Source of the DNA: Hydrogenophaga sp.
GTDB lineage: Bacteria; Pseudomonadota; Gammaproteobacteria; Burkholderiales; Burkholderiaceae_C
Length of the DNA: 64,000 bases
Direction: 5' to 3'
Assembly: GCF_041913525.1 (NCBI RefSeq)
Contig: NZ_JAYSFD010000002.1
Coordinates: 5,186 to 69,185 of the forward strand
Shown: positions 2,484-18,981 of the stretch, one piece after another
Layout: each line of letters begins with the position of its first letter
Numbering within the stretch: the first letter of the stretch is position 1
Notes under the pieces: model-generated
What the model was told of the DNA's origin: nothing
The model's database searches: none
Seen by the model: only the letters and a program-made list of their open reading frames with translations
Translations under genes and position numbers: made by a program

Positions 2484-4172
2484 ATGAACGACTACCGCCC
2501 CGTCGCGGCCGACGCCGCCACCCTGTTGCTCGATGTGTTGCAGGCCCCGCAAATCCTGGCCGAACTGCCGGCCCTGGCCGAGCACGCCGACGCCGACCTG
2601 ATGCGCGAGGTGCTGGAGCAGGCGGGCAAGTTCGTGGGCGAGGTGGTGGCCCCGCTCAACCGCACCGGTGACGAGATCGGCGCGCGCTGGGCCAATGGCA
2701 ACGTGACCATGCCGCCCGGTTTTCGCGATGCCTACCAGGCCTTCTGGCAGGCCGGCTGGCCCGCGCTCTCGGCCGACCCGGCCGACGGCGGCCAGGGCCT
2801 GCCCGCCGTGCTGGAGATGATCCTGTACGAATGGCTCAGCGCGGCCAACCACGGCTGGACCATGGCCCCCGGCATCCTGCACGGCGCTTACGAGTGCGTG
2901 AAGCACCACGGCAGCGAGGAGCTGCGGGCGCAGTACCTGCCCAAGCTCGCCACCGGTGAGTGGCTGTCCACCATGTGCCTGACCGAGCCGCACGCCGGCA
3001 GCGACCTGGGCCTGGCGCGCACCAAGGCCGTGCCGCAGGCCGACGGCAGCTACCGCATCAGCGGCACCAAGATCTTCATCTCCGGCGGTGACCACGACCT
3101 CACCGACAACATCGTGCACCTGGTGCTGGCGCGCCTGCCCGACAGCCCGCCTGGCCCCAAGGGCCTGTCGCTGTTCCTGGTGCCCAAGTTCTATCCCGAC
3201 GGCAGCCGCAGCGCCGCCGTGTGCGAGCGCATCGAAGAAAAAATGGGCCTGCACGGCAGCCCCACCTGCGTGATGCGCTTTGACGAGGCCACCGGCTGGA
3301 TCGTGGGCGAGCCCGGCAAGGGCCTGAACGCCATGTTCCTCATGATGAACGCGGCCCGCCTGCACGTGGCCCTGCAAGGCGTGGGCCTGCTCGACGCCGC
3401 CTGGCAGAAGGCCAGCGCCTACGCGCAAGACCGCCGCCAGATGCGCGCCCCCGGCCCGCGCGACGCCTCGCAGCCGGCCGACCCCATCATCCAGCACCCC
3501 GCCGTGCAGCGCCTGCTGGACACCCAGCGCGCCTGGATCGACGCCGGCCGCGTGCTGGCCTACCGCACCGCGCTCGAACTCGACGTGGGCCGCCACCACC
3601 CCGACGCCGCGCGGCGCGAGCGCGCGCAACAGTGGTGCGCCCTGTTCACCCCGGTGCTCAAGGCCAGCTGGACCGACCAGGCCTTCCACGGCGCCAGCGA
3701 CTGCCTGCAGGTCTTCGGTGGCCACGGCTACGTGCGCGAGTGGGGCATCGAGCAGGTGGTGCGCGACTCGCGCGTGGCCATGATTTACGAAGGCACCAAC
3801 GAAATCCAGGCGCAAGACCTGCTGTTCCGCAAGGTGCTGAGCGACCGTGGCGTGGGCCTGCTGCGCCTGCTGGACGAGCTGCAGGCCGATCTGGCGCCCC
3901 TGAGCGGCGACGCCGCCGCCCGCGCCCTGGACGGCGTGGCCCGCCTGCGTGGACTGGTGCAGTCGCTGCCCGAGGCGCAGGCCCCGGCCGCGCAAGCCCT
4001 GTACCCGGTGGCCGGCGATTTCCTGCGCGCCACCACCATTGCGCTCATGGCCTGGGCCTGGGCGCGCCTGCAGGCCAGTGGCGGCGATGCCCGCAGCGCC
4101 ACCGCCTTTGCCCGCTGGGTGTGGCCCGAGCTTGACTGGCGCTGCCGCATGGTCGAGCAGGCCCTGGCCTGA
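2484..4172 (+). CDS. Long acyl-CoA dehydrogenase (FadE/AidB-like, with C-terminal extension)
   Basis: Start at ATG 2484 (MNDYRPV). 562 aa with ACAD motifs ([18 protein letters not shown]). Confidence 0.9.
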
Positions 4173-4792
4173 TGGCCGCGCGGGCCTGGTTGTCCCGGGC
4201 GGCAAAGGGCGCGGGGCAGGGCGGGCTTAACATGCCGGCTTCCCAGCCTGTTGTCACGCCCATGCCCGCGAAGTCACCTGCGTCCTCCCCGGCCCCTGGC
4301 GGCGTTCGTCGCCGTGCCCCTCGCGCCGCCGCCAAGCCCGTGCCCGAAGCGGTGGACACGGTGGACGTGTCCGCGCTGGAACGGCTGATTGGCTACAACG
4401 CACGCCGCGCGGCCCTCACCGTGATCGCCTCGATGGTGGACAGCGTCAAGCCCTTTGACTTGCGCGGCCCGCTCGACTTCTCGGTGCTCACGCTCATTGG
4501 CCACAACCCGGGCGTGACCTCGCGCCAGTTGTGCAGCGTGCTCGACATCCTGCCGCCCAACTTGGTGGGCATCATCAAGCAGCTCGAATCGCGTGGCCTG
4601 GTCGAGCGCCTGGTGCACCCCACCGACGGCCGTGCCCAAGGCCTCTACCTCACGGCCGCCGGCCAGGCCCTCACCGACGAGGCCGAGGCCACCGTGATCG
4701 CCGCCGAAGACCGCGCCTCCGGCCGGCTCACCGATGCCGAGCGGCGCACCCTCACCACGCTCTTGCAAAAGATCTACCGCCGCGCCGACTGA
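4172..4792 (+). CDS. MarR-family transcriptional regulator
   Basis: Winged-helix region TSRQLCSVLDILPPNLVGIIKQLESRGLVERLVHPTDGRAQGLYLT. The ATG overlaps the ACAD stop (TGATG). The Pro/Ala-rich N-terminus means the true start could be ATG 4232. Confidence 0.8.
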   Translation: MAARAWLSRAAKGAGQGGLNMPASQPVVTPMPAKSPASSPAPGGVRRRAPRAAAKPVPEAVDTVDVSALERLIGYNARRAALTVIASMVDSVKPFDLRGPLDFSVLTLIGHNPGVTSRQLCSVLDILPPNLVGIIKQLESRGLVERLVHPTDGRAQGLYLTAAGQALTDEAEATVIAAEDRASGRLTDAERRTLTTLLQKIYRRAD

Positions 4793-5235: not shown

Positions 5236-5853
5236 TCAGCCCGCCTGGCGCAAGGCGAAGGCGCGCTGCGCCGCCGGTCGTGCCAGGCAGCGGGCGTGCC
5301 AGGCCCGTGCATAGGGCACGGCTTCGCGGGCCATGTCGTTCAGGCGCTGCAGCACGGCGGCCACGTTCAGGTCGGCCACGGTGAAGCCATTGCCCACCAG
5401 GTAGTCGCGCGTGGCCAGGTGCTCGTCAAGCACGCGCAGGCGGGCCTGCAGCTTCTCCAGCGCCTCGTCGGCCAGGCGCGGGATGCGCTGCGCCTCGGGC
5501 AGGAAGGCGGTGTGGTGGAACCACTGGCGGGCCAGGGGCTCGGCCTCGGTGGCGGCCCACAGCGTCCATTGGCCGATGCGCGCTTCGTCGGCCACGTTGC
5601 TGGCCCACAGGCCGCCCGCGGGGCGGCTGCGCGCCAGGTGCAGGGTGATGGCCAGCGACTCGAACAGCACTAGGCCGTCGTCGTCGATGGCCGGCACTGT
5701 GCCATTGGGGTTCAGGGCCAGGTAGGGCGCCTCACGCGTCTCGGGTGCGTTGTAGTGCAGGCGGATGTGCTCGTAGGGAATGCCCAGCTCTTCCGCCGCC
5801 CACAGGGGACGGATGGCGCGCGAGGCGGCGATGCCGTAGATCTTCAGGCTCAT
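5236..5853 (-). CDS. Glutathione S-transferase
   Basis: 205 aa with an N-terminal thioredoxin-like GST domain (LNPNGTVPAIDDDGLVLFESLAI) and a C-terminal helical domain. Confidence 0.9.
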   Translation of the reverse strand: MSLKIYGIAASRAIRPLWAAEELGIPYEHIRLHYNAPETREAPYLALNPNGTVPAIDDDGLVLFESLAITLHLARSRPAGGLWASNVADEARIGQWTLWAATEAEPLARQWFHHTAFLPEAQRIPRLADEALEKLQARLRVLDEHLATRDYLVGNGFTVADLNVAAVLQRLNDMAREAVPYARAWHARCLARPAAQRAFALRQAG

Positions 5854-5889: not shown

Positions 5890-7362
5890 TCAGCAGGCCA
5901 GGGCCATGCCGTCCTTGCGGCGGTCCGATCCGCCAATGAGGCGGCCGTCCGGGGCGCGCATCACCACCTGGGCACCGCCAAAGTCGCTGCGCCCGCCCAG
6001 TTCGCCCTGGCCTGTGGGCTCGGTGTAGCCGGCGGCCCGCAGGGCCTGTTCGATGGCAGGTGGCGTGCCGGCCTCGATGGCCAGGGCGCGCTCGCCTTCC
6101 AGGCGCCAGCGTGGCGCGTCGATGGCGGCCTGCAGCGGCTCGCCCCAGGCCGCCACGCGGGTGAGGATCTGCACATGGCCCTGCGGCTGCATGGCGCCGC
6201 CCACCACGCCGAAGCCAGCGTGGAACACGCCGCCCCGCAGGGCCGCGCCGGGCACCACCGTGTGGTACGGCCGCTTGCCGGGCCCGGGGCCGTTGAGGTG
6301 ACCCGGCTCCGAGAAACCGAAGCCCCGGTTCTGCAGCACAAAGCCGCAACCGGGCACGCCAATGCCTGAGCCAAAGCGCTTGAAGACGCTGCTCATCAGG
6401 GTGATGGCCAGGCCATCGCTGTCCACCACCACGGTGCACACCGTGTTGCCGGCGGGGTCGGCCACCACCTTCTTGGCGTGGGCCATGGCCTCGCCCATGC
6501 GGTCCACCATGGCCACGGTGGTGAGCGGGTCGTGCGGGTCAAGGTCAAGCGCGTCCAGTGCCTGCAGTGTGTGCAGCACGGCCAGGCCGTGGGTGTTGGG
6601 TGGGCACTCCAGCACTTCCAGGCCTCGGAAGTTGGCGCGCAGCGGCGCAGCGAAGTGGCCTGTGTGCCGGGCAAAGTCTTGCGCCTTCAAGACGCCGCCC
6701 AGTGTGTCGCTGGCGCGCTCGGCCGCGCGCGCGGGCTCGCCCAGGTAGAAGGCATCGGGCCCCTCGTTGGCCACCGCCTGCAGCACCGCGCCCAGTTCGG
6801 GGTTGGCGAAGCGCTCGCCAGCGCTGGGAACGGCGTGGGCGCGGTAGAGCGCGGCGGCCACCGGGTCGCGGGCGATCACGGGCTGGAACAGGGCCCATTC
6901 GCGCGCCGCCACGGGCGCCACGGGGAAGCCTTGGTTGGCCACGCGAATGGCGTCTTGAAACAGCCGCTGCCAGGGCAGGCGCCCATGTCGCTGGTGCAGG
7001 TCGTGCCAGCCTCGCACCACGCCGGGCACGGTGGCGGTGAGCATGTGGCGCTCGGGCAGCTTGCCGCGCGGGAAGGCGCTCACCAGTGAAGGCAGCAAGT
7101 CTTGCGGCGAGCGGCCGGTGCCGTTGTAGGCCTGGGGCTCGGCCCCGGGCGGCACCACCATGGCCAGCAGGTCACCGCCAATGCCGGTGGCCATGGGCTC
7201 CACCACGCCCAGCACCGCGTCGGCCGCGATGGCCGCGTCCACCGCGCTGCCGCCTTCGGCCAGCGCGCTGGCGGCCGCCTCGGCGGCCAGGGGGTGGCCG
7301 GTGGCCACCATGGCCCGTTCACCGATGACGCAGGGGGAAGTGGAAGGGGTAGGGGGCGGCAT
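5890..7362 (-). CDS. ggt: Gamma-glutamyltransferase family protein, no signal peptide
   Basis: Start trimmed to ATG 7362 (MPPPTPSTS...). 490 aa with GGT motifs (ATGIGGDL, NTVCTVVVD autoprocessing-Thr region, GGSDRRKDG). The upstream part of the 634-aa ORF crosses low-GC non-coding DNA. Confidence 0.85.
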   Translation of the reverse strand: MPPPTPSTSPCVIGERAMVATGHPLAAEAAASALAEGGSAVDAAIAADAVLGVVEPMATGIGGDLLAMVVPPGAEPQAYNGTGRSPQDLLPSLVSAFPRGKLPERHMLTATVPGVVRGWHDLHQRHGRLPWQRLFQDAIRVANQGFPVAPVAAREWALFQPVIARDPVAAALYRAHAVPSAGERFANPELGAVLQAVANEGPDAFYLGEPARAAERASDTLGGVLKAQDFARHTGHFAAPLRANFRGLEVLECPPNTHGLAVLHTLQALDALDLDPHDPLTTVAMVDRMGEAMAHAKKVVADPAGNTVCTVVVDSDGLAITLMSSVFKRFGSGIGVPGCGFVLQNRGFGFSEPGHLNGPGPGKRPYHTVVPGAALRGGVFHAGFGVVGGAMQPQGHVQILTRVAAWGEPLQAAIDAPRWRLEGERALAIEAGTPPAIEQALRAAGYTEPTGQGELGGRSDFGGAQVVMRAPDGRLIGGSDRRKDGMALAC

Positions 7363-7394
7363 GGGCGGGCTCCTGGAGAATGATGGGTGATTAT

Positions 7395-7407
7395 GAATAC
7401 AGTATAC
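7395..7407. promoter_or_regulatory. GTATAC-N-GTATAC-type palindrome, copy A1 (GAATAC A GTATAC)
   Basis: One mismatch to the 13-bp palindrome. It lies 33 nt upstream of the ggt start codon. Confidence 0.6.
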
Positions 7408-7420
7408 CGATTGAGCCGAT

Positions 7421-7462
7421 TCGATGGCGGTGAGTCGATGGCGGTGAGTCGATGGCGGGTGC
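7421..7462. repeat. 14-bp direct tandem repeat x2.9 (TCGATGGCGGTGAG)
   Basis: Units at 7421-7434 and 7435-7448 are identical. The unit at 7449-7462 is degenerate. Confidence 0.9.
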
Positions 7463-7503
7463 TGCCAAGCCACTTTCAACCGGTTCGGCGAGGGATTTTG
7501 GGT

Positions 7504-7519
7504 TGGCACGCTCCGTGCT
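7504..7519 (+). promoter_or_regulatory. Possible sigma-54 (-24/-12) promoter TGGCACG-N5-TGCT
   Basis: TGGCACGCTCCGTGCTT has GG and GC at the canonical 10-nt spacing. It faces the permease gene about 385 nt downstream. No enhancer-binding protein is present in the window. Confidence 0.35.
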
Positions 7520-7539
7520 TGATATCGGCTTGTGCATCG

Positions 7540-7552
7540 GTATACCGTATAC
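7540..7552. promoter_or_regulatory. GTATAC-N-GTATAC palindrome, copy A2 (perfect)
   Basis: GTATAC C GTATAC in the ggt/permease intergenic region. Confidence 0.7.
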
Positions 7553-7671
7553 ATGGTTAGCCAAAAGGTGCACAGGGAGTGGAAGCCGAAGAGAGGATGG
7601 TCTCCAGAGTGAAGAAATCGAATGCTTTGGCGTTCGACTTTGCATGGGAAAACCCTGAGCCTCTTCAAACT

Positions 7672-7684
7672 GTATGTTGTATAC
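7672..7684. promoter_or_regulatory. GTATAC-N-GTATAC-type palindrome, copy A3 (GTATGT T GTATAC)
   Basis: One mismatch. Located in the same intergenic region. Confidence 0.6.
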
Positions 7685-7705
7685 GATTCGGTGCGCAGGG
7701 ACGGA

Positions 7706-7723
7706 GGAAGCCCCAAAAAGGGG
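7706..7723 (+). promoter_or_regulatory. Shared leader element GGAAGCCCCAAAAAGGGG
   Basis: Near-identical to 15027-15045 (GGAAAGCCCCCAAAAGGCC). Both copies lie next to GTATAC palindromes and face the downstream + strand gene. Confidence 0.45.
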
Positions 7724-7903
7724 AAAGCGCACCCAAGTGGTGAATGCAGGAGAAGCGCCAGCGGGCGGATGGTCAGCGATCCGCCCGTTGCCAAACGAAG
7801 TGAAGTGAGGGAAAGCGCCGCGCCCGGTCAGGCATGACGGGGCGAGGTGACATCGCAACAGCGGGCCGGCCCACGACGGCTCATACCAATTTGATAGGTC
7901 AAC

Positions 7904-9430
7904 ATGGATTCCAACGTAACACTGACAGCTGCGCACTGGATGTACCTGATCGGGGTCATCAGCATCATCGTCACGATGATGTTCCGCGCCAACGTGCTGG
8001 TGCCGTCGATTGCCGCCACTTTTCTGGTGGCCTTCGCCTGGACCGGCAGCCCCATCGGGGCATTGGGCAGCATTTACAGCGCCAGCCTGGTGGCGGCCAA
8101 GGAGTTATTCAACATCTTCCTGGTCATTGCCTTGATGACGGCGCTGCTCAACAGCCTGAAGGACCTGAAGTCCGACATCCTGATGGTGCGGCCCTTCCGC
8201 GTGCTCATGAAGAACGGCACGGTGTCTTACCTGCTGCTGGGCCTGATCACCTACCTGATCTCGCTGTTCTTCTGGCCCACCCCGGCCGTGCCGCTGGTGT
8301 GCGCCGTGTTGTTGCCCGCCGCCATTGCCGCCGGCCTGCCCCCGCTGGTGGGCGCCGCTGCCGTGGCCATTGCCGGTCAGGGCATGGCGCTGTCGTCTGA
8401 CTACGTGATCGGCGTGGCGCCCATGATCAGCGCCAAGGCCGCCGGTGCCTCGGCCGCCGTGATTGGTGACCGCGCCCTGGTGCTGTCGCTCATCACTGGT
8501 GCCGTGGCCCTGCTGCTGGTGTACCTGTTCCAGCGCCGCACCTTCCAGCCGGCCAACCCGCTGCTGCTCAAGCGCTGGCAGGCCCTGGCCACCACGGGCG
8601 AACTGGTGAGCCACGAAGGCACCGCGCACAAGGCGGAAATCGCCCAAGGCACCAGCCACGAAGAAGACCTGTCCACCAACCAGAACATCGAACGCGAGCT
8701 GGCCTCGCTGCCGCCCGAGCAGGCCAAGTGGTCGCGCGTGTTCGCCCTGGTGACCCCGCTGGTGTTCCTGGTGATCGTGGTGCTGATGGCACTGCCCAAG
8801 TTCGGCGTGCCGCTGGGCGACCTCAAGGGTGGGGCGGCTGCCTCGCTGGTGGGCGGCGCTGCCGGCCTGCTGATGATCTTCGCCACCCTGGCCATGAAGG
8901 GCTCCAAGGGCATGCTGGAAGCCAGCGCCGACCACATCACCGAGGGTTTTGTGTTCGCCTTCCGCGCCATGGGTTCGGTGCTGCCGATCGCGGGCTTCTT
9001 CTTCCTGGGTGCCAGCGAATCCGCTGCCGCCATCTTTGGCACCGCCGCCAACCAGACGCCCAGTTTCCTGTTTGAGCTGGTGGCCGGCGCGCAGGACTGG
9101 ATTCCCCACAGCAAGGTTTTCGTGGCCTTCGGTCTGCTGATCGTGGGCATGGTCACCGGCATCGACGGTTCGGGCTTCTCTGGCCTGCCGCTGACCGGCG
9201 CACTGGCGGGCGCCATGGGCCCCGTCTCGAACATGGACTCAGCCACCCTGGCCGCGATCGGTCAGATGGGGGCCATCTGGACCGGGGGTGGGACGTTGAT
9301 TGCGTGGTCTTCGCTGATCGCCGTGGCCGGGTTCGCCCGTGTCTCGGTGACCGATCTGGTGAGGGCCTTGACGCTACCGGTATTGCTGGGCCTGAGCGCG
9401 GCCACCTTGGCCGCCGTGGTGATCTTCTGA
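7904..9430 (+). CDS. Polytopic membrane permease, IT-superfamily-like (NhaC/GntP/DcuC-type two-half architecture)
   Basis: 508 aa. Two hydrophobic halves are separated by a charged loop (HEGTAHKAEIAQGTSHEEDLSTNQNIERE). The exact family is not resolved by eye. Confidence 0.75.
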   Translation: MDSNVTLTAAHWMYLIGVISIIVTMMFRANVLVPSIAATFLVAFAWTGSPIGALGSIYSASLVAAKELFNIFLVIALMTALLNSLKDLKSDILMVRPFRVLMKNGTVSYLLLGLITYLISLFFWPTPAVPLVCAVLLPAAIAAGLPPLVGAAAVAIAGQGMALSSDYVIGVAPMISAKAAGASAAVIGDRALVLSLITGAVALLLVYLFQRRTFQPANPLLLKRWQALATTGELVSHEGTAHKAEIAQGTSHEEDLSTNQNIERELASLPPEQAKWSRVFALVTPLVFLVIVVLMALPKFGVPLGDLKGGAAASLVGGAAGLLMIFATLAMKGSKGMLEASADHITEGFVFAFRAMGSVLPIAGFFFLGASESAAAIFGTAANQTPSFLFELVAGAQDWIPHSKVFVAFGLLIVGMVTGIDGSGFSGLPLTGALAGAMGPVSNMDSATLAAIGQMGAIWTGGGTLIAWSSLIAVAGFARVSVTDLVRALTLPVLLGLSAATLAAVVIF

Positions 9431-9486
9431 TCGCCTGAGGCCCGACCAAAAAAACTGTTCAAAAACTGTCTGAGGAACTTGAAATC

Positions 9487-10524
9487 ATGATGAAGAAGAG
9501 CATCGTTCTGGTGGCCGCCACCTTGGCCACCGGCGCCGCCATGGCCCAGTCCAGCGTGACGCTGTATGGCCTGGCCGACATCTACCTGGCCAGCCAGAAA
9601 AACGCCGCCACCGGTCAGCGCGTGACCAAGCTGGAGAGCAGTGGCATCTACGAAAGCCGCTTTGGCTTCAAGGGCAGCGAAGACCTGGGCGGTGGCTACA
9701 AGGCCAACTTCCAGCTTGAGCAGGGCTTCGCCCTGGACGCCGGCACTGCCAGCACTGGCCAGGCCTTCAGCCGCCAGTCGTGGGTGGGCATCTCCGGTGG
9801 CTTTGGTGACGCGCGCTTCGGCAAGGCCTGGAGCGCCTTCGACGACGTGAGTGGCTCCACCCTGGCGGCCAAGAACTCGGTGCTGGCCCCCAACCAGGGC
9901 ACCTGGCTGACCACCTCGTACAAGGACAACCCGAACAACGGCCTGTACTACGCCACGCCCGAATTCGGCGGCCTGAGCGCGGCCGTGAGCTACGGCCTGG
10001 GCGAGAACAAGACGCCCACCACTGGTGCTGGCTCCATCACCAGCGTGCACGTGAAGTACGGCAAGGGCCCGCTGTTCGCGGCCGTGGCCTACCAGACGGA
10101 AAAGGCGACCTCGGCCGCCAAGGCGATCAACTTCACCCGCCTGAGTGGTTCGTACGACTTCGGCCCGGCCAAGCTGCTGGCCAGCTATGGTCGTGTCAGT
10201 CACGACGGCAGCCGCACCAACGAGTGGGCCCTGGGCGCCGACGTGCCCCTGGGCGGCGGCTGGCTGCTCTCGGGTGGCGTGGCCAACTCGAAGGGTGGCA
10301 TCACCGGTTTCACCGGCGACGCCAACTACACCGGCAAGCTCGTGAACACCGTGGCACCGGGTGCCGCCGATGTGAAGCGCACCGGTTACAGCGTCGCGGC
10401 CTTCTACAGCCTGAGCAAGCGCACCACCGTCTACGGTGGTTACCGCTCCAACACCACCAAGGTGCCGGGTGCTGCCGACCAGGACGGCAGCCTGCTGGCC
10501 GTGGGCATGCTGCACACCTTCTGA
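9487..10524 (+). CDS. Outer-membrane porin (Burkholderiales OmpC/Omp32-like)
   Basis: Signal peptide MMKKSIVLVAATLATGAAMA, then QSSVTLYGLADIY. Beta-strand periodicity throughout and a C-terminal ...GMLHTF. Confidence 0.92.
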   Translation: MMKKSIVLVAATLATGAAMAQSSVTLYGLADIYLASQKNAATGQRVTKLESSGIYESRFGFKGSEDLGGGYKANFQLEQGFALDAGTASTGQAFSRQSWVGISGGFGDARFGKAWSAFDDVSGSTLAAKNSVLAPNQGTWLTTSYKDNPNNGLYYATPEFGGLSAAVSYGLGENKTPTTGAGSITSVHVKYGKGPLFAAVAYQTEKATSAAKAINFTRLSGSYDFGPAKLLASYGRVSHDGSRTNEWALGADVPLGGGWLLSGGVANSKGGITGFTGDANYTGKLVNTVAPGAADVKRTGYSVAAFYSLSKRTTVYGGYRSNTTKVPGAADQDGSLLAVGMLHTF

Positions 10525-10575
10525 TCGAAAGGGGCCTCGACCCCTTGTTTCTCCGGTTGACTTCCTATGCTGTTT

Positions 10576-10602
10576 CACCGCGCCTCGGCGCGGTGTTTTT
10601 TT
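10576..10602 (+). terminator. Rho-independent terminator after the porin
   Basis: caccgcgcc-tc-ggcgcggtg followed by T8. Confidence 0.85.
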
Positions 10603-10633
10603 GCCCGAAAGCCGGGGCCGAAGCCCCGTGGCA

Positions 10634-11449
10634 TCAAGTCAGCCAGGCCGAATGAAGCATCTTGGCCGCCAGCACGAAGAGGAAGGCCGCGAACACCCGC
10701 TTGAGCGTGGCCACCGGCAGCCGTGCCGCCAGACGGGCGCCCACAGGGGCCATCAGCACGCCCGGAATCAACACACCCAGAAACGCCGGCAAATAAATGA
10801 AGCCCAGGCTGCCCGCTGGCAGATCCACTGTTCCGCGACCACCAATGAAGAACATCACCGCGCCCATGATGGCAATGGGCAGGCCCAGCGCCGCCGACGT
10901 GCCCACGGCGCGGTGCATGTTCACGTTGCACCAGGTCATGAAGGGCACCGAAAGAAAGCCGCCTCCGGCCCCCACCAGCTGCGACAGCGCGCTGATGGCC
11001 GTGCCCACGCCGGCCAGGCCGAGCGCGCCGGGCAACTGGCGCGTGGGCTTGGGCTTGGCGTTGAGGAACATCTGCAGCGCCGAGTACGAGACAAACACCG
11101 CGAACAGCATCGCCAGCGCGGTGGTGCTGAGCTGCTTGGCCAGCCAGCCGCCCACCAGGCCACCCAGCAGGATGCCCGGTGCGATGCCGCGCACGATGGA
11201 CCAGTCCACATTGCCCTTGGCGTGGTGGGTGCGCGCGCTGGAGATCGAGGTGAACACGATGATGGCCAGCGAGGTGCCCAGTGCCATGTGCACCAGCGAG
11301 GCGCGGGCAAAGCCCTGGGCCTCGAACAGCCAGGTGAGCAAAGGCACGAACAGCATGCCCCCGCCAATGCCCAGCAGGCCCGCGGCAAAACCACCGGCCA
11401 CGCCCAGGGCGAGGTAGGCGGGCAACCAATGCAAGAAATCGACGCTCAT
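10634..11449 (-). CDS. TauE/SafE-family (DUF81) anion exporter/permease
   Basis: Start trimmed to ATG 11449 (MSVDFLHWLPAYLALGVAGGFAAGLLGIGGG). 271 aa with about 8 TM and the duplicated GxGGG motifs typical of TauE. Confidence 0.88.
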   Translation of the reverse strand: MSVDFLHWLPAYLALGVAGGFAAGLLGIGGGMLFVPLLTWLFEAQGFARASLVHMALGTSLAIIVFTSISSARTHHAKGNVDWSIVRGIAPGILLGGLVGGWLAKQLSTTALAMLFAVFVSYSALQMFLNAKPKPTRQLPGALGLAGVGTAISALSQLVGAGGGFLSVPFMTWCNVNMHRAVGTSAALGLPIAIMGAVMFFIGGRGTVDLPAGSLGFIYLPAFLGVLIPGVLMAPVGARLAARLPVATLKRVFAAFLFVLAAKMLHSAWLT

Positions 11450-11576
11450 GAAAACTCCTTTGATGGAAGGGAAAGAAAGAATGGAAAAAACCACTGGTGG
11501 CTCACCGCCCCGCCCCTGGACAGGGGGCTCGCATAAAATTCGGGCGCCTCGGGCGGCGTTCTGCGCGGGCCCGCTC

Positions 11577-11588
11577 CATACAGTCGAC
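11577..11588. promoter_or_regulatory. Degenerate GTATAC-type half-palindrome (CATAC A GTCGAC) just upstream of the GntR gene
   Basis: Two mismatches to ATACAGTATAC, 18 nt before the GntR ATG. Weak. Confidence 0.25.
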
Positions 11589-11605
11589 CGAGAACACCAA
11601 GCGCC

Positions 11606-12259
11606 ATGACCCTGCTGAAGAAGGAAGCCACCCTGGGCGCCGCCCATTCGCCGCTGACCACGCTGGTGGTCGAGGCCTTGCGCGACCGCATCCTCAGCGG
11701 TGCCATTCCACCGGGCGAGCGCCTGGTGGAGAGCCGCCTCTCGGAAGAACTGGGGGTGTCGCGCATGCCGGTGCGCGAGGCGCTGCGGCAGCTCGCATCG
11801 GAAGGCCTGGTCACCATCGAGCCGCGCCGGGGCGCGTCGGTCACGTCGTTCAGCCCCGAGCAGGTGCGCGAACTGGTGGAAGTGCGCGCCACGCTCGAAG
11901 GCCTGAACGCCAAGCTGGCGGCCCAGCGCCACGACGCCCGGCAAATTGCCGAGATGGAAAAAATTCTGGAAGAGGGCGCGCGCCTGGCCGCGGTGGGCGA
12001 CCCGGCCACGCTGATGCAGATGAACCAGCGTTTTCACGACGCGCTGGGCAGCATCGCCGCCAATTCGGTGTTGCAAGAGATCATGCGGTCGCTGCGCGAC
12101 CGCACGGCCCTGCTGTTCGCGCCCATCAACCGCACGCGTGGCGAACAGAACTGGGACGAGCACGCGGCCATCCTGCGCGCGGTCATCAAGGGCGATGCCG
12201 AACTGGCCGCGCTGCTGGCCATGCGCCACGTGTACAACGCGGCGCAGATGGAGCCCTGA
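11606..12259 (+). CDS. GntR-family (FadR subfamily, FCD domain) transcriptional regulator
   Basis: HTH region GERLVESRLSEELGVSRMPVREALRQLASEGLVTIEPRRGASV, plus a helical FCD C-terminal domain. Confidence 0.92.
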   Translation: MTLLKKEATLGAAHSPLTTLVVEALRDRILSGAIPPGERLVESRLSEELGVSRMPVREALRQLASEGLVTIEPRRGASVTSFSPEQVRELVEVRATLEGLNAKLAAQRHDARQIAEMEKILEEGARLAAVGDPATLMQMNQRFHDALGSIAANSVLQEIMRSLRDRTALLFAPINRTRGEQNWDEHAAILRAVIKGDAELAALLAMRHVYNAAQMEP

Positions 12260-12284
12260 TCGGGCGGACGCGCGCCGCCGGCGC

Positions 12285-13202
12285 TCAGGCGCCGGCTTGC
12301 AGGCGCTGCCACACCAGACCGGCCAGGGCCACGTCTTCCAGGCCCACGCCGACCGACTTGTACAGCGTGATGGCGCTGTCGTCCTGGCGCCCCGGGTGTT
12401 GCCCGGTGACCAGTTCGCCCAGCTCCACGATCTGTTCTTCGCGCAGCACCTCGGGCGCGGCCAGCACCAGGTCGCCGGCCTCGCGCAGCGTCTGCGGTTT
12501 CCACTCCACCGCGATCACGCTGGCGCGCCGCAGGGCGGTGTCGTCCAGTTCGCGGGTGTGCGGCAGGCTGGAGCCGATGGCCGCCACGAAGGCGCCGGGC
12601 TTGAGTTGCGCACCGCCGAAGAGGGGTGTGGTCGAGCGCGAGGCGGTGACCACGATGTCGGCGTCGTCCACCGCTTCGTCGGCGCCACACAGGCGCACCG
12701 GCACGCCGCACAAGGCCTGCAGTTCCTCGGCCACCGTGGGGCTGGCGTAGGGATCGCACACGCGGATGTCGTGCAGCGCGAAGGCCTTGGCCATCTGCTG
12801 CGCGTGCATGCGACCCTGCACACCGGCGCCGAACAGGGCCAGGCGGCGCGCACCCGCGCGGGCCAGGTGGCGCGCCGCGATCACCGAGCAGGCGGCGGTG
12901 CGCAGCCGGGTGATGGCGCCCGCGTCGAATGAGGCCAGGGCGCGGCCGTCCACGGTGGAAAACAGCAGGATCACAAAAGTGAACTGGCCCTTGATGGTGG
13001 TGTAGACCTTGGCGCCGGCCACTTCCTGGCCGGGAATCACCGCGCCCAGGGTGGAGAGCTTCACCCCGCCCGCTTCGGTGCGGATGCGCTCTTGCATGGC
13101 GGCCTCGCCGCGCCCGAAGCGCTCGAAGGCGTCCAGCAGCACGGCCTGGGCCTGCTCGGGGGTGATGGTGGCGTCGACCACGGCGTCCGTGATGTGTTGC
13201 AT
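12285..13202 (-). CDS. Ornithine cyclodeaminase / mu-crystallin family NAD(P) enzyme (imine reductase or cyclodeaminase)
   Basis: 305 aa. GAITRLRTAACSVIAARHLAR and LALFGAGVQGRMH (Rossmann) are typical of OCD/mu-crystallin. Confidence 0.9.
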   Translation of the reverse strand: MQHITDAVVDATITPEQAQAVLLDAFERFGRGEAAMQERIRTEAGGVKLSTLGAVIPGQEVAGAKVYTTIKGQFTFVILLFSTVDGRALASFDAGAITRLRTAACSVIAARHLARAGARRLALFGAGVQGRMHAQQMAKAFALHDIRVCDPYASPTVAEELQALCGVPVRLCGADEAVDDADIVVTASRSTTPLFGGAQLKPGAFVAAIGSSLPHTRELDDTALRRASVIAVEWKPQTLREAGDLVLAAPEVLREEQIVELGELVTGQHPGRQDDSAITLYKSVGVGLEDVALAGLVWQRLQAGA

Positions 13203-13244
13203 GGCGGGTCCTTGAAAGGGAGTGAACAGGGGGAAGGGGGGGCC

Positions 13245-13994
13245 TCAGTGGCCGGTCAGCACCCGGGCCAGAATGCCCAGCGCGCCCAGGCCGGCCATGC
13301 CCAGCAGCAGCGCGCGCACCCGGGCCGCGGGCACGCGCCCCTTGAGCAGGCCCGAGACCAGAAAGCCGGCCAGCATCCAGGGCATGAGGATCAGGCTGAT
13401 GAGGAACTCGTGCGCGCCCATGCGGCCCACGGCGGTGAGCGCCGCGATCGACACGGCCGAGCCAATGAAGAAGATGGCGCCAAAAGTGCCGCGCAGGCGA
13501 TCGGCCGGCATGTGCTGCATGGCAATGGCAAAGGGCGGTGCGCCCACCGAGGTGATGGTGCCCATCACGCCCGAGGCCAGCCCGGCAATGGTGGTGTTGC
13601 GCAGCGTGGGCATCACGCGCCAGCCAGACAGGCTCAGGCCCACGCCGCTGAGGATCAGCACAGCGAACAGCACCGACAGCGTCTGCGCAGAGAGCAGCGT
13701 CAGGCTGACGGCGGCCACACCGGTGCCCACCACCCGGCCCACCAGGGCCAGGCGCGCCATGGGCCATTCAATGGAGCGGCGGTCGCGCATGCCTGTCATG
13801 AGCGCCAGCGGGCAGCTCAGCACCAGCATGGGGCCGGGCACCAGTTCGGGGAACCAGAGCGCGGCCAGGGGCGAGGCGAACATGGCAAAGCCCAGGCCAC
13901 TGACGCCCTGCAGGCAGGCGCCCACCAGCACCAGGCTGCCCATGGCGAGCAGACGGTCCCAGCCGATGCTGTTCAGCAGATCCAGAAGCGCCAT
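13245..13994 (-). CDS. Second TauE/SafE-family membrane protein
   Basis: Start trimmed to ATG 13994 (MALLDLLNSIGWDRLLAMGSLVLVGACLQGVSGLGFAMF). 249 aa, polytopic. It lies 13 nt downstream of the ferredoxin gene. Confidence 0.82.
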   Translation of the reverse strand: MALLDLLNSIGWDRLLAMGSLVLVGACLQGVSGLGFAMFASPLAALWFPELVPGPMLVLSCPLALMTGMRDRRSIEWPMARLALVGRVVGTGVAAVSLTLLSAQTLSVLFAVLILSGVGLSLSGWRVMPTLRNTTIAGLASGVMGTITSVGAPPFAIAMQHMPADRLRGTFGAIFFIGSAVSIAALTAVGRMGAHEFLISLILMPWMLAGFLVSGLLKGRVPAARVRALLLGMAGLGALGILARVLTGH

Positions 13995-14007
13995 GGCCGC
14001 GTGCGCC

Positions 14008-14286
14008 TCACCACGAGACGGCGATGTCTCCGCGCACGAAGGTCTGGCAGGCCATGCGGTAGCCGGCCGCGATGTCCTCATCGCTCAGGTGCTTGCGCTC
14101 CTTGGCCTTGACCTCGTCGGTGTGCTCCAGCCCTTGCTCGATGCGGCACTTGCAGGTGCCGCACAGGCCACCGCCGCACTTGAACGGAATGCCGCCCTTT
14201 TCGCGCAGCGACACGCGCAGCAGGTTGCTGTTGTCGGGCGCGCTGGCGACCTTGTGCTCGTTGTTGATGAAGGTGATCTGGATCAT
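14008..14286 (-). CDS. Plant-type [2Fe-2S] ferredoxin (Fdx-2)
   Basis: 92 aa with a CGGGLCGTC...C(RMACQ) = C-x4-C-x2-C...C cluster motif. Its start overlaps the upstream gene stop (ATGA). Confidence 0.9.
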   Translation of the reverse strand: MIQITFINNEHKVASAPDNSNLLRVSLREKGGIPFKCGGGLCGTCKCRIEQGLEHTDEVKAKERKHLSDEDIAAGYRMACQTFVRGDIAVSW

Positions 14287-14615
14287 GGCTGAACAGAAAG
14301 AGGGCGGCTGATGTCGGCAAGGGCCACTGGCACGAGTTCGGCCTGCATCGCCCCGAATGAGCAGAGGTGGTGAAGCTCGCGCCGGGCGGCGTCGAGGGTG
14401 GAGAAAGACTCCAGGAACTTGGAGGGCACGGCGTTGACGGTGACCGGCTCGGTCTCGTCGATGACGCGCACCCGCGTGGGGTTGAGCAGCTCGGCCACCA
14501 CGAAGCGCGCGCGCAGGCGGCCATAAAAGCGGTAGTCGTAGGCTTCCACCGGGTTCAGGCCGGGGCCCGCTTCGCTGCGGAACTGCCCGGGTTTGGAGGT
14601 CAGGATGACGTACAT
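14283..14615 (-). CDS. 110-aa conserved-looking orphan protein between two ferredoxin genes
   Basis: Start trimmed to ATG 14615 (MYVILTSKPGQFRSEAGPGLNPVEAYDYRFYG...). No Cys cluster and no signal peptide. Translationally coupled to Fdx-2. Confidence 0.7.
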   Translation of the reverse strand: MYVILTSKPGQFRSEAGPGLNPVEAYDYRFYGRLRARFVVAELLNPTRVRVIDETEPVTVNAVPSKFLESFSTLDAARRELHHLCSFGAMQAELVPVALADISRPLSVQP

Positions 14616-14635
14616 GGCGCGGTCCTTGCGTGGGG

Positions 14636-14926
14636 TTATTCCTGCACGAGCTCGATGTCGTGCTCCAGCCAGAGCTGGCAGGTCAGGCGATAGCCCTGAT
14701 CGAGCCGCTCGCCCAGCTGCTTCTTCTCTTTCCAGTTGGGTGGGGGCAGGTGCTCGGCACCTGCCAGCACCCGCGTGGCGCACTTGGAGCACTTGCCCAT
14801 GCCGCACTCGTATTTCAGGTGGGGAAAGGGAAATTCCTTGATGCCGGCGCGCACCACCAGATTGGTTTGCGGTTTGACCTCGCCTTGGTAGGTCTGGCCG
14901 TTCTTGTGGAAGGTGACGATGGGCAT
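14636..14926 (-). CDS. Plant-type [2Fe-2S] ferredoxin (Fdx-1)
   Basis: Start trimmed to ATG 14926 (MPIVTFHKNGQTYQGEV). 96 aa with CGMGKCSKC...C(LTCQ) = C-x4-C-x2-C...C. Confidence 0.9.
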   Translation of the reverse strand: MPIVTFHKNGQTYQGEVKPQTNLVVRAGIKEFPFPHLKYECGMGKCSKCATRVLAGAEHLPPPNWKEKKQLGERLDQGYRLTCQLWLEHDIELVQE

Positions 14927-14972
14927 GGTGAGGGGGCTTTCGGAGGCCTGAAAAATCGGTTGCGTTGAGCTC

Positions 14973-14987
14973 AGTATACAGTATACT
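14973..14987. promoter_or_regulatory. Perfect 15-bp palindrome AGTATAC A GTATACT (copy B1)
   Basis: Located in the divergent Fdx-1 / HDO intergenic region. Confidence 0.75.
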
Positions 14988-15026
14988 TTAATCGAGTCAA
15001 CGCCAATCACCCGGTCAAAAGGGAAT

Positions 15027-15045
15027 GGAAAGCCCCCAAAAGGCC
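15027..15045 (+). promoter_or_regulatory. Shared leader element GGAAAGCCCCCAAAAGGCC
   Basis: Counterpart of 7706-7723. It lies between palindromes B1 and B2. Confidence 0.45.
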
Positions 15046-15065
15046 TTCCTATTGGCGCAGTCTCG

Positions 15066-15078
15066 GTATACTGTATAC
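15066..15078. promoter_or_regulatory. Perfect palindrome GTATAC T GTATAC (copy B2)
   Basis: 73 nt upstream of the HDO start codon. Confidence 0.75.
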
Positions 15079-15150
15079 GCTGCCTGCGGTTGGCCCGTTC
15101 CGGACAGGTGCCGGCAGACATCCACCCCACTCTTCATTCAGGAGCCTTTC

Positions 15151-15882
15151 ATGTCTCAACTGTTGAACCGCGATGAATTCCGGACCGCCCTCGAAAACGC
15201 CATCAAGGGCAAGAGCGCCAACCAGTCGCCCTTTAGCCTGGCCTGGGCCGGTGGCACCCTCAGCCGCGAGCACCTGGCGCGCTGGGCCGAGAACCACTAC
15301 CACTACGTGGGCCCTTTCGCCGACTACCTGGGCTACCTCTACGCCCGCACCCCCGACCACATGACCGAGGCCAAGGACTTCCTGCTGGCCAACATGTACG
15401 AAGAGGAAATCGGTGGCGACCGTCACACCGACCTGCTGATCCGCTTCGCCGAGGCCTGCGGCACCACCCGTGAGCGCGTGGTTGACCCCGACAACATGTC
15501 GCCCACCACCCGTGGCCTGCAAAGCTGGTGCTACGCCGTGGCCATGCGCGAAGACCCCGTGGTCGCCGTGGCCGGCCTCGTGGTGGGCCTGGAGTCGCAA
15601 GTGCCCTCGATCTACCGCAAGCAAACCCCCACCCTGCGCGAGAAGTACGGCTTCACCGACGAAGAAGTGGAGTTCTTCGACCTGCACATCGTCTCGGATG
15701 AGATCCACGGCGAGCGCGGCTACCAGATCGTGCTGGAGCACGCCAACACCATCGAGCTGCAACAGCGCTGCCTGAAGATTTGCGAGATCGGTGCCCAGAT
15801 GCGCCTGCTCTACACCACCGCGCTCTACAACGACTACGTGGCCCCCACCCTGGACAAGCCCTCGCTGGCCCTGGCCGCCTGA
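15151..15882 (+). CDS. PqqC-fold heme-oxygenase-like diiron oxidase/oxygenase (HDO; iron-containing redox enzyme family)
   Basis: Start at ATG 15151 after the caGGAGcc RBS. 243 aa with PqqC-like N-terminal helices. The full ligand pattern is E85-x6-H92 ... E148 ... H179-x3-D183-x2-H186. Confidence 0.85.
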   Translation: MSQLLNRDEFRTALENAIKGKSANQSPFSLAWAGGTLSREHLARWAENHYHYVGPFADYLGYLYARTPDHMTEAKDFLLANMYEEEIGGDRHTDLLIRFAEACGTTRERVVDPDNMSPTTRGLQSWCYAVAMREDPVVAVAGLVVGLESQVPSIYRKQTPTLREKYGFTDEEVEFFDLHIVSDEIHGERGYQIVLEHANTIELQQRCLKICEIGAQMRLLYTTALYNDYVAPTLDKPSLALAA

Positions 15883-15990
15883 TCGCCATTCAGTGACCTC
15901 AAGCGCCGCCTGAGCGCTTGCTGAGCCGGACGGGCGCGTGCGCGCCCGTCCTCTCCCCCTCCCGACATCCGATCCCGGAGCCGTCCTTCC

Positions 15991-17442
15991 ATGCAGACCG
16001 AAGAATTCCTCAACTACATCAATGGCGAATGGGTGAAGTGCCGCAGCGGTCGAACCTTCGACAACATGAACCCGGCCGACACCCGTGAGCTGGTGGGACG
16101 CTTTCAAGCCTCCACCGCGCTGGACGCTGAAGACGCCGTGAACGCCGCCGCCGCCGCCTTTGATGGCTGGCGCCGCACGCCGGTGGGCCAGCGCGCCCGC
16201 CTGCTCAACAAGGCCGCCGACTACCTGGAGGCCAACGCCCAGCGCTTTGGCGAAGAGCTCAGCCGGGAAGAGGGCAAATCGGTCGCCCTGGGCAAGGACG
16301 AGTTCGTGCGCGCCGCGCAGACCTTTCGCTTCTACGCCACCGAAGGCCAGACCTTTGGCGGTGAAACCTATGTGCAAGACGACCCCGACCTGATGGTCTA
16401 CAGCCAGCGCGAGCCGCTGGGGGTGGTCTCGGTGATCTCGCCCTGGAACTTTCCGGCCTCCATCCCGGCGCGCAAGATCGCGCCAGCGCTGGTCACGGGT
16501 AACACCATCGTCTTCAAGCCCTCGTCTGACGCGCCCCTGAGCGGCCTGCGCCTGGTCGAGGCGCTGGTGCACGCCGGCCTGCCGGCGGGCGTCATCAACT
16601 ACATCACCGGCCGCGCCGGCGACGTGGGCCCCATCATCACCACCTCGCAGGCCATTCGCGCCATTTCCTTCACCGGCTCCACCCAGGCGGGCATGCACAT
16701 CCACCGCACGGTGCACCTGACCACGCGCCTGCAGATGGAACTGGGCGGCAAGAACCCGCTGATCGTGATGGAAGACGCCGACCTGGACAAGGCGGTGGAC
16801 CTGGCCATCAAGGGCGGCTTCTCGCTCACCGGGCAGGCCTGCACCGGCACCAGCCGCGTGATCGTGATGAAGGCCGTGAAGGAAGACTTCACCCAGCGCC
16901 TGGTGGCCAAGGTGAAGGGCCTGAAGATCGGCCCTGGTCACCAGCCAGGCATGGACCTCGGCCCCCTGGCCACCGCCAAGCAACTGGAGACGGTGCTGTC
17001 CTACATCGCCATCGGCCGCGCAGAGGCGCAACTGCTGTGCGGCGGCGAGCGCCTGCAAGACGGCGAGTACGCACACGGCTACTACGTGACGCCCGCCATT
17101 TTTGACGGCGTGACGCAAAAGGCTCGCATCGCTCGCGAAGAAATCTTCGGCCCGGTGATCGCCATCCTGGAGGCCGAGTCTTTTGAGCAGGCCATGGCCA
17201 TGGCCAACGACAGCGAGTACGGCCTCTCGGCCGCCATCGCCACGCGCAACCCGCGCTACATCCACCAGTTCTCCAACGACATCCAGTCGGGCACGGTGAA
17301 GATCAACCGGACCACCACCGGCAACCTCATCAACGCACCCTTCGGCGGCGTGAAGAACTCCAGCACCTCCACCTTCCGCGAGTCTGGCCGCGTGGGCCTG
17401 GAGTTCTTCACCCAGACCAAGGTCGTTTACCGCGGCCTCTGA
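15991..17442 (+). CDS. NAD(P)-dependent aldehyde dehydrogenase
   Basis: 483 aa with ALDH motifs (ISPWNFP, FTGST, ELGGKNP, catalytic Cys in GQACTG). Confidence 0.93.
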   Translation: MQTEEFLNYINGEWVKCRSGRTFDNMNPADTRELVGRFQASTALDAEDAVNAAAAAFDGWRRTPVGQRARLLNKAADYLEANAQRFGEELSREEGKSVALGKDEFVRAAQTFRFYATEGQTFGGETYVQDDPDLMVYSQREPLGVVSVISPWNFPASIPARKIAPALVTGNTIVFKPSSDAPLSGLRLVEALVHAGLPAGVINYITGRAGDVGPIITTSQAIRAISFTGSTQAGMHIHRTVHLTTRLQMELGGKNPLIVMEDADLDKAVDLAIKGGFSLTGQACTGTSRVIVMKAVKEDFTQRLVAKVKGLKIGPGHQPGMDLGPLATAKQLETVLSYIAIGRAEAQLLCGGERLQDGEYAHGYYVTPAIFDGVTQKARIAREEIFGPVIAILEAESFEQAMAMANDSEYGLSAAIATRNPRYIHQFSNDIQSGTVKINRTTTGNLINAPFGGVKNSSTSTFRESGRVGLEFFTQTKVVYRGL

Positions 17443-17479
17443 ACGCCGCCCATTCCCTTACCGATACCCGAGAACCGCC

Positions 17480-17959
17480 ATGAAGACTTCCCTGAAACTG
17501 CAACTCGACGAAGCCCGCCGCATGGCCGCCGCCGCGCTGGACAAGGCCCAGGCCCTGGGCGTGCCCGAGACCGTGTGCATCACCGACGAAGGCGGCTTTC
17601 CGCTGGTGCTTGAGCGCATGGACGGCGCCCGCGTGACTGGCCCGCAAATCGCTTGGAACAAGGCCTTCACCGCCGCCGGCCACAAGCGTTCCACCCACCT
17701 CTTCAACACCGCGCCCAACGGCCCCGCGCTGCCTGGCAACGAGGCCTTCGGCATCCAGTGGAGCTTCGAGGGCAAGTTCGCCGTGTTCGTCGGCGGCTTC
17801 CCCATCGTGGTGAATGGCGAGGTGGTGGGCGGCGTGGGCCTGAGCGGCGGCAACGGCGAGCAAGACACCGCCTGCGGCCTGGCCGCCCTGCAAGCCCTCA
17901 AGGACCTGCTGGCTCCCAGCGGCCAGGACGTCCTGGTGCAGGCCGACATCAAGAAGTGA
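17480..17959 (+). CDS. GlcG/HbpS-family (DUF336) heme-binding-like protein
   Basis: 159 aa. ...VCITDEGGFPLVLERMDGA... and GGFPIVVNGEVVGGVGLSGG are hallmark GlcG motifs. Confidence 0.88.
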   Translation: MKTSLKLQLDEARRMAAAALDKAQALGVPETVCITDEGGFPLVLERMDGARVTGPQIAWNKAFTAAGHKRSTHLFNTAPNGPALPGNEAFGIQWSFEGKFAVFVGGFPIVVNGEVVGGVGLSGGNGEQDTACGLAALQALKDLLAPSGQDVLVQADIKK

Positions 17960-17976
17960 GCACCGAGGAGCGCGCC

Positions 17977-18981
17977 ATGGCACACCGCGTCACTTGGCTG
18001 GAAACCGGCCAGGCCTTCGAGGCACAGGCCGACGAACCCGTGCTGTCGGCCGCGCTGCGCTGCTCGGTCGAGCTGCAGCACGACTGCCGCTTCGGTGGCT
18101 GCGGCACCTGCCGGGTCAAGCTGGTGGAGGGCCGCGTCGAGTACGACGAGCTGCCCATGGGCCTGAGCGAAGAAGAGGCCGAGGCCGGCTATGCCCTGCT
18201 GTGCCAGGCACGCGCCTGCTCTGACCTGGTCATCAGCGCCGAGCCCTTGCAGGGCTGCAGCCCGCCCACGCGCCTGCTGGCCTGCGTCACCGAGGTGTGC
18301 GCGCTGGCCGATGACGTCACCCACCTGCGCCTGGAGCTGCCCGACGACAGCCTGCAGTTCCGCCCCGGCCAGTACATGAACGTGCTGCTCGAAGACGGCA
18401 GCCACCGCAGCTTCTCCATGGCCTCGCGCCCGCAAGGCGCGGTGGTGGACTTTCACGTGCGCCGCATCGACGGCGGGCGCTTCACCGACCACGCCGTGCG
18501 CGCCCTGCAAGTGGGCGACGCGCTGGAGGTGGAGCTGCCTCTGGGCGGCTTTCACCTGCACACCCAAGACTACCGGCCCCTGGTGATGATGGCCACCGGC
18601 ACCGGCCTGGCCCCGCTCAAAAGCATGCTGGAGTCGCTGATGGACGACCCCGACTGCCCACCCGTGAGCCTTTACTGGGGCGCGCGCACCGAGGCCGACC
18701 TGTACCTCGATGCCGAGATCCGCACCTGGGGTGAGCGCCTGTACGAGTTCCGCTACGAGCCGGTGCTCTCCCGCGCGTCGGCGGGCTGGGCCGGCCGGCG
18801 CGGTCATGTGCAAGACGCGGTGCTGCAAGACGTGCAAGACCTGGGCGAGTGCGCCTTTTACTTGTGCGGCTCGCCGGCCATGATCGCCGACGCCCGGGCA
18901 GCCCTTATCGCCCGAGGCGCCGACCCCGACTTCATCTACACCGACAGCTTCCTGTTCCAGCACGAGCCGGCCACGGCCTGA
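17977..18981 (+). CDS. [2Fe-2S]-FAD-NAD(P)H oxidoreductase (N-terminal plant-type ferredoxin fused to an FNR-like module)
   Basis: Start at ATG 17977 (MAHRVTWLETGQ). CRFGGCGTC...C motif, RSFSMAS flavin motif and MMATGTGLAP NAD motif. The architecture matches oxygenase reductases of the MmoC/DmpP/AscD type. Confidence 0.9.
   Translation: MAHRVTWLETGQAFEAQADEPVLSAALRCSVELQHDCRFGGCGTCRVKLVEGRVEYDELPMGLSEEEAEAGYALLCQARACSDLVISAEPLQGCSPPTRLLACVTEVCALADDVTHLRLELPDDSLQFRPGQYMNVLLEDGSHRSFSMASRPQGAVVDFHVRRIDGGRFTDHAVRALQVGDALEVELPLGGFHLHTQDYRPLVMMATGTGLAPLKSMLESLMDDPDCPPVSLYWGARTEADLYLDAEIRTWGERLYEFRYEPVLSRASAGWAGRRGHVQDAVLQDVQDLGECAFYLCGSPAMIADARAALIARGADPDFIYTDSFLFQHEPATA

Follow-up and report, generated by a model that had tools for sequence, protein, structure and literature searches.

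Genes and palindromic sites of the locus

The sequence analyzed here is a 64-kb stretch of a Hydrogenophaga sp. genome (contig NZ_JAYSFD010000002.1; hereafter the window), and the elements under study are five copies of a GTATAC-based palindrome which lie in two intergenic regions of a cluster encoding a GntR-type regulator, a permease, a porin, ferredoxins and an HDO-type monooxygenase component. Genes were called by GC3-guided open reading frame (ORF) finding combined with Pfam and NCBIfam (Table 1), and the exact proteins of the window are found in database records from Hydrogenophaga sp. Gene names follow the dip cluster of Alcaligenes faecalis, the relationship to which is described below. 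The protein of the gamma-glutamyltranspeptidase (GGT) family lacks an N-terminal signal-like sequence, and searches of Pfam, NCBIfam and PDB sequences initiated with the 508-residue permease gave no family match, which makes its earlier designation as IT-type tentative.

Table 1. Coordinates of the genes and sequence elements discussed in the text (L083, metagenome contig carrying the published DipR footprints)
Feature	Positions	Strand	Evidence and remarks
Glutathione S-transferase (GST)	5236..5853	-	Pfam; directly 3' of dipC
dipC ortholog, GGT-family	5890..7362	-	Pfam; 61% identity to the gene after dipB in L083
Putative operator O1, GAATACAGTATAC	7395..7407	.	1 mismatch; 33 nt 5' of the dipC start codon
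Sigma-54-like -24/-12 element, TGGCACGCTCCGTGC	7504..7518	+	Faces dipB; TGGCACG-N5-TGC
Putative operator O2, GTATACCGTATAC	7540..7552	.	Perfect; dipB side; 21 nt 3' of the sigma-54-like element
GGG-W4-CCC box, GGGAAAACCC	7646..7655	.	Unchanged among Hydrogenophaga loci; begins 26 nt before the start of O3
Putative operator O3, GTATGTTGTATAC	7672..7684	.	2 mismatches; 220 nt 5' of dipB
dipB ortholog, 508-aa membrane permease	7904..9430	+	61.5% identity to L083 dipB
Porin_4 porin	9487..10524	+	Pfam; 56 nt 3' of dipB
TauE	10634..11470	-	ORF calling, Pfam/NCBIfam
Possible weak or relic operator, CCATACAGTCGAC	11576..11588	.	dipR leader; 4 mismatches
dipR ortholog, GntR winged helix-turn-helix (wHTH) and FCD, 217 aa	11606..12259	+	Pfam
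Ferredoxin operon, five genes	12285..14926	-	ORF calls, Pfam, comparison with related loci and L083
Ornithine cyclodeaminase/mu-crystallin family (OCD; dipM-like)	12285..13202	-	
TauE/SafE membrane protein (dipA-like)	13245..13994	-	
Ferredoxin (dipL-like)	14008..14286	-	
110-aa protein (dipK-like)	14283..14615	-	
Ferredoxin (dipJ-like)	14636..14926	-	
Putative operator O4, AGTATACAGTATACT	14973..14987	.	15-bp palindrome; 13-bp core 14974-14986 perfect
Putative operator O5, GTATACTGTATAC	15066..15078	.	Perfect; 73 nt 5' of the dipD start
dipDEFG orthologs	15151..18981	+	Pfam; gene order same as L083
HDO/Haem_oxygenas_2 monooxygenase component (dipD)	15151..15882	+	86% identity to L083
Aldehyde dehydrogenase (ALDH)	15991..17442	+	65% identity to L083
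HbpS-like	17480..17959	+	74% identity to L083
Ferredoxin-NAD reductase	about 17965..18981	+	49% identity to L083

The window was scanned for GTATACNGTATAC with up to two mismatches allowed, using 100 dinucleotide-preserving shuffles as the control. Exactly five sites with 0-2 mismatches were found, starting at 7395, 7540, 7672, 14974 and 15066, against an expectation of 0.06 from the shuffles, none of which gave five. The sites at 7540, 14974 and 15066 are perfect, in agreement with the original prediction, which had also extended the second of these to the 15-bp palindrome; its count of one mismatch in each remaining copy holds for 7395-7407 but not for 7672-7684, which has two. The G+C content of the window is ~68% and the hexamer GTATAC occurs in it nine times, eight of these within the five sites and the ninth, at 35638, inside an ORF. 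All five sites are intergenic and none occurs elsewhere in the window, as had been proposed; three lie in the gap between the GGT and permease genes (7363-7903) and two in the gap between the ferredoxin and HDO genes (14927-15150), both of which are divergent promoter regions. An Rfam scan of the whole window returned no RNA family matches, and hence a riboswitch or small RNA does not explain the 540-nt intergenic region.

To follow the sites in evolution, we recruited 80 genome loci via HDO (86-96% identity) from Hydrogenophaga, Achromobacter, Cupriavidus, Bordetella, Variovorax, Paraburkholderia, Azospirillum, Bradyrhizobium and others. About two-thirds of them carry the 13-mer, with at most one mismatch, within ~300 nt 5' of the HDO gene and mostly at 40-160 nt; the distance from operator to HDO start is alike across genera, being 43-99 nt in 19 representative loci and 148-155 nt in Azospirillum. 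Every locus of sufficient length contains a linked ortholog of the GntR regulator (45-89% identity), which travels with the ferredoxin triplet, ALDH, the HbpS-like protein, the reductase and the permease, with GGT in a subset of loci. With 84 related loci counted in all, the motif tracks operon starts across ~15 gene orders and is almost never found inside coding DNA. Within Hydrogenophaga, the intergenic regions have otherwise diverged to 47-56% column identity, and the operators stand out as some of the few blocks that are conserved; O1 does not vary among the six aligned Hydrogenophaga intergenic regions, nor does O4 in the alignment of the ferredoxin/HDO region. Phylogenetic footprinting of the orthologous intergenic regions, a check suggested along with the original prediction, thus gave a positive result. 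That the sites recur by chance, or belong to some small repetitive or mobile element, is the least probable of the explanations we considered, with virtually no weight left to it: the repetition itself speaks for it and nothing more, the shuffles refute it, the sites are restricted to dip promoters in distant genera, and the similarity of their flanks ends at the motif.

Relationship to the dip cluster of Alcaligenes faecalis

A full-text search for GTATAC together with GntR retrieved the study of Jiang et al. (Nucleic Acids Res 2024, PMC11472048). In this work, DipR of A. faecalis JQ135 was shown to be a GntR/FadR repressor of the dip genes, whose products degrade the spore compound dipicolinic acid (DPA). 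The protein binds six dip-promoter sites sharing 5'-GWATAC-3', as demonstrated by electrophoretic mobility shift assay, DNase I footprinting and site mutagenesis, and mutation of the hexamer abolishes binding of purified DipR in vitro (PMC11472048). The dip promoters are derepressed in a dipR deletion and dipicolinate frees DipR from DNA; DNA binding depends on residues R63 and R67 and the response to the effector on H196 and H218, the regulator controls its own gene, and the first step of DPA degradation is hydroxylation by DipD (PMC11472048). The same text reports motif-bearing dip clusters from 80 strains in 39 genera, including Pseudorhodoferax, Caldimonas and Leptothrix, which belong to Burkholderiales like Hydrogenophaga (PMC11472048).

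Metagenome contigs were searched for one published DipR footprint, which led to contig L083. It carries both published DNase I footprints verbatim and encodes, in order, GntR, TauE, permease, GGT, HDO, ALDH, HbpS-like protein, reductase, a small ORF and ferredoxin, an order consistent with the published structure of the dip units; its regulator is an A. faecalis protein (235 aa). The regulator of the window could be aligned to this protein with 57% identity over 205 aa (E = 1e-80), rising to 71% in the wHTH, and all four mutagenized residues of DipR are conserved in it (R53, R57, H186 and H208 correspond to R63, R67, H196 and H218). Besides the identities given in Table 1, the ferredoxin and TauE proteins are 79% and 42% identical to those of L083. 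Thus, the link through L083, the identity of DipR and DipD and the conserved residues indicate that the window locus is a Hydrogenophaga dip cluster, and sequence comparison makes it very likely that DipR, a repressor of the GntR/FadR type whose gene lies between the two site-bearing gaps, has the five palindromes as its operators. The basis for this in the window is the sites themselves, their non-random placement, their conservation and the orthology to a characterized system. The original prediction had singled out this GntR protein as the candidate repressor, which its orthology to DipR, its conserved residues and its linkage across loci support, and had joined the GGT, permease/porin and HDO/ferredoxin operons in one substrate-inducible regulon, which matches the DipR regulon of A. 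faecalis (PMC11472048).

It is conceivable that the palindromes are bound by another transcription factor encoded elsewhere and that the adjacent GntR protein regulates something else, since the binding of DipR in Hydrogenophaga is a prediction and GTA-TAC cores are recognized by many FadR-type regulators (PMC11472048). However, across loci no regulator other than the GntR ortholog is conserved together with the motif, this protein retains the arginines for DNA contact, and the DipR ortholog was shown to bind the hexamer (PMC11472048), so that we regard this explanation as very improbable. A MarR gene at 4172-4792 was considered as an alternative regulator and set aside, as it is absent from all related loci.

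The window resembles the A. faecalis system in having an orthologous GntR/FadR repressor and the same GTATAC/GAATAC core at several cluster promoters, and in encoding the permease, GGT, HDO (DipD), ALDH, HbpS-like protein, reductase, ferredoxins, TauE and OCD. It differs from A. faecalis in gene order, with dipC and dipB transcribed divergently and likewise the ferredoxin operon and dipD; it has a porin and a GST in addition, no detectable dipH, a degenerate site at the dipR promoter and a sigma-54-like element 5' of dipB. The window has five strong sites in two intergenic regions, whereas A. faecalis has six sites in four regions, and the sites of the window are clean 13-bp double hexamers, whereas several of those in A. 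faecalis have a degenerate partner hexamer. The added genes recur in related loci: the porin occupies the same position after dipB in Hydrogenophaga loci and is probably in the same transcription unit, and the GST, which adjoins GGT also in Hydrogenophaga, in two Cupriavidus loci (L032 and L048) and in L079, is probably an accessory gene co-transcribed with dipC. The dipH product appears to be a protein of 63-65 aa (L083, 10636-10827, and L053, 12516-12713, both on the minus strand) and is kept in Alcaligenes, Pollutimonas, Achromobacter, Bordetella and Cupriavidus loci, often with an operator of its own. DipD-type HDO proteins are unusually conserved, with 86-96% identity from Hydrogenophaga to Bradyrhizobium and Azospirillum.

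The canonical operator of the FadR subfamily, as Rigali et al. reportedly defined it in 2002, is TNGTNNNACNA. The sites described here do not follow this pattern, in which GT and AC stand 3 nt apart in an 11-bp palindrome; they consist of GT-AT-AC hexamers with a repeat distance of 7 bp and fall into the GTA-TAC operator class discussed for FadR-type regulators (PMC11472048). A comparable protein is Atu1419 of Agrobacterium fabrum, a FadR-type repressor of hydroxycinnamate degradation (PDB identifier 6z74 and related entries) which is an FCD-type GntR protein matching the window regulator with E = 2.7e-15, and its operator ATGTATACAT has the GTA-TAC core of the window sites. The residues mutated in DipR were chosen from the Arg and His residues equivalent in Atu1419 (PMC11472048). 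Atu1419 differs in its effector and pathway and in recognizing single 10-bp palindromes rather than 7-bp-phased hexamers, and is not an ortholog. The operator of Bacillus subtilis GntR, quoted in the same text as ATACTTGTATACAAGTAT (PMC11472048), likewise has a central GTATAC with partial hexamers on either side, but these are 2 nt away rather than 1, and the protein is only a distant homolog that controls the gluconate regulon.

Phased hexamers and further promoter elements

The spacing of hexamers was examined over the whole set of loci and for 107 perfect GTATAC copies in the non-coding cluster DNA of 29 representative loci. Over all loci, a partner hexamer with at most one mismatch is found at exactly +7 or -7 bp in 16-25% per side, as against at most 1.6% at other offsets; with two mismatches allowed, 79% of the 107 have a partner at 7 bp compared to a background of 2.8%, and 15% have a weaker third hexamer. 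The usual operator is thus GTATAC-N-(G/A)TATAC, sometimes extended to a 20-bp triple, and we infer a 13-bp double hexamer, and not a single 6-mer, to be the working operator; the physiological form may be a 7-bp-phased array of two or three hexamers (13-20 bp). Triple hexamers with this phasing, such as GTAGAC-G-GTATAC-A-ATATAC, in which the centre is perfect and the outer two are weaker, are seen at L083 6730-6749, L032 9915-9934 and L079 9921-9940. The published dipA footprint contains GTATAAGGTATTC and the dipD site of L083 is GTAGACGGTATACAATATAC. About one-fifth of the hexamers have no good partner, so that a single hexamer is possibly enough, as the published mutagenesis also suggests (PMC11472048).

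These statistics also bear on the possibility that the AT-rich repeats are mere promoter elements, -10-like TATAC sequences in a genome of 68% G+C, and not repressor sites. All sites are indeed in promoter regions, and O4 overlaps a TATACT which scores as the -10 hexamer of a predicted sigma-70-type promoter of the ferredoxin operon on the minus strand. However, a -10 box needs neither a perfect 13-bp palindrome nor a second hexamer at exactly 7 bp, and DipR requires the hexamer for binding in vitro (PMC11472048), which together leave this possibility hardly any probability. In A. faecalis, the site equivalent to O5 lies just 5' of the mapped dipD start site (PMC11472048).

The GGT/permease gap holds a further conserved element. 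RpoN promoters have the form TGGCAC-N5-TTGC, with GG and GC 10 nt apart, and act with a bacterial enhancer-binding protein. The sequence at 7504-7518 fits this pattern, one more match to a loose version of which falls inside a coding region. Its TGGCACG...TGC is invariant in six of six Hydrogenophaga species, although the sequence on either side has diverged; in Hydrogenophaga it always stands 19-21 nt ahead of O2, and in Pseudorhodoferax (L078) a variant, TGGCATGGTCGTTGC, lies 17 nt ahead of the equivalent operator. No GAFTGA or Walker-A signature of an enhancer-binding protein was found in the window. Judging from these matches, a sigma-54 promoter may drive dipB in Hydrogenophaga and the related Pseudorhodoferax, DipR binding immediately 3' of the start site. 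Between O1 and this element, at 7424-7457, lies a tandem duplication of ~2.5 copies of the 14-nt unit GATGGCGGTGAGTC, which is absent from other Hydrogenophaga loci.

The second conserved element, the GGG-W4-CCC box, precedes dipB in Hydrogenophaga, and a GGG-W4/5-CCC box is found 25 nt ahead of the dipD operator in Achromobacter, Alcaligenes, Bordetella and L067 (unclassified Pseudomonadota). The box (in the related loci at L083 6705, L036 9903, L005 9903, L067 9878, L053 8483, L034 9877 and L078 18448) keeps a fixed distance of 25-26 nt, counted between starts, 5' of a DipR operator, and in A. faecalis it would occupy roughly positions -62 to -53 relative to the mapped dipD start. We found no discussion of the box in the available part of the DipR paper (PMC11472048). 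At this fixed distance from some operators it may bind a second factor. Taken jointly, a control by DipR more elaborate than published, with phased hexamer arrays, a sigma-54 promoter for dipB and a second-factor box, is a tentative proposal that we consider less likely to hold as a whole than to fail.

Other elements of the region are less well conserved. The site in the dipR leader is matched only in L039 (3 mismatches) and has decayed in other Hydrogenophaga loci; the window contains 20 sites with 3-4 mismatches, or ~1 per 3 kb, and this copy alone is therefore indistinguishable from chance. Near it, at 11531-11540, all Hydrogenophaga loci share a conserved CGCATA(A/G)AAT block 5' of the regulator gene, likely the -10 element of dipR. 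The two intergenic regions had also been said to share the element GGAAGCCCCAAAAAGG. Two copies are indeed present, GGAAGCCCCAAAAAGGGG (7706-7723) and GGAAAGCCCCCAAAAGGCC (15027-15045), but they differ by indels and are specific to the window. We rejected a functional role for this element: the second copy lies in an insertion absent from five other Hydrogenophaga species, and the column of the first is not conserved among Hydrogenophaga.

A proposed mechanism and its implications

Based on the above, we propose that in the absence of DPA DipR would occupy GTATAC-based operators overlapping or directly following the promoters of four units, namely dipC(-GST), dipB-porin, the ferredoxin operon (dipJKL-TauE-OCD) and dipDEFG, each site presumably occluding a promoter element. 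Binding of DPA to the FCD domain would release the repressor, upon which the permease and porin would import DPA and the HDO, together with the ferredoxins and the reductase, would hydroxylate it to 3-hydroxy-DPA. The order suggested originally, import followed by gamma-glutamyl processing and then oxidation, is unsupported because the published first step is hydroxylation by DipD (PMC11472048).

Several points weigh against this reading. Repression, DPA as the inducer and DipD as the first step are all carried over by analogy from A. faecalis. A search of the window for dipH gave nothing above noise, and this is the sole dip structural gene missing. O2 and O3 sit 352 and 220 nt from the dipB start, which leaves the promoter geometry there uncertain. 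Finally, the dipR site is degenerate, and DipR may, unlike in A. faecalis, control its own gene weakly here or no longer do so.

The system is already known, and the locus is an ordinary Hydrogenophaga copy of the published DipR/dip regulon. An earlier paper, by Mu et al. in AEM in 2022, is said to have assigned functions to the dip genes, and no later work on the DPA pathway was found in the literature searched. As a prediction of a regulon the present analysis therefore adds little; what is new is that the operator model is refined to a 13-bp double hexamer and that two promoter elements, the sigma-54-like element and the GGG-W4-CCC box, are conserved without an explanation so far, points which go beyond the published description in so far as it was available to us. 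In practical terms, the locus can be annotated as dip genes; its current database labels are 'TenA family transcriptional regulator', 'pyrroloquinoline-quinone synthase' and 'GntR family transcriptional regulator', the first two of which public records apply, misleadingly, to DipD-type HDO. If the operator is a phased array, more than one DipR dimer would bind per site, or binding would occur in alternative registers, and if dipB has a sigma-54 promoter, uptake would be gated by DPA together with a second (nitrogen or carbon) signal.

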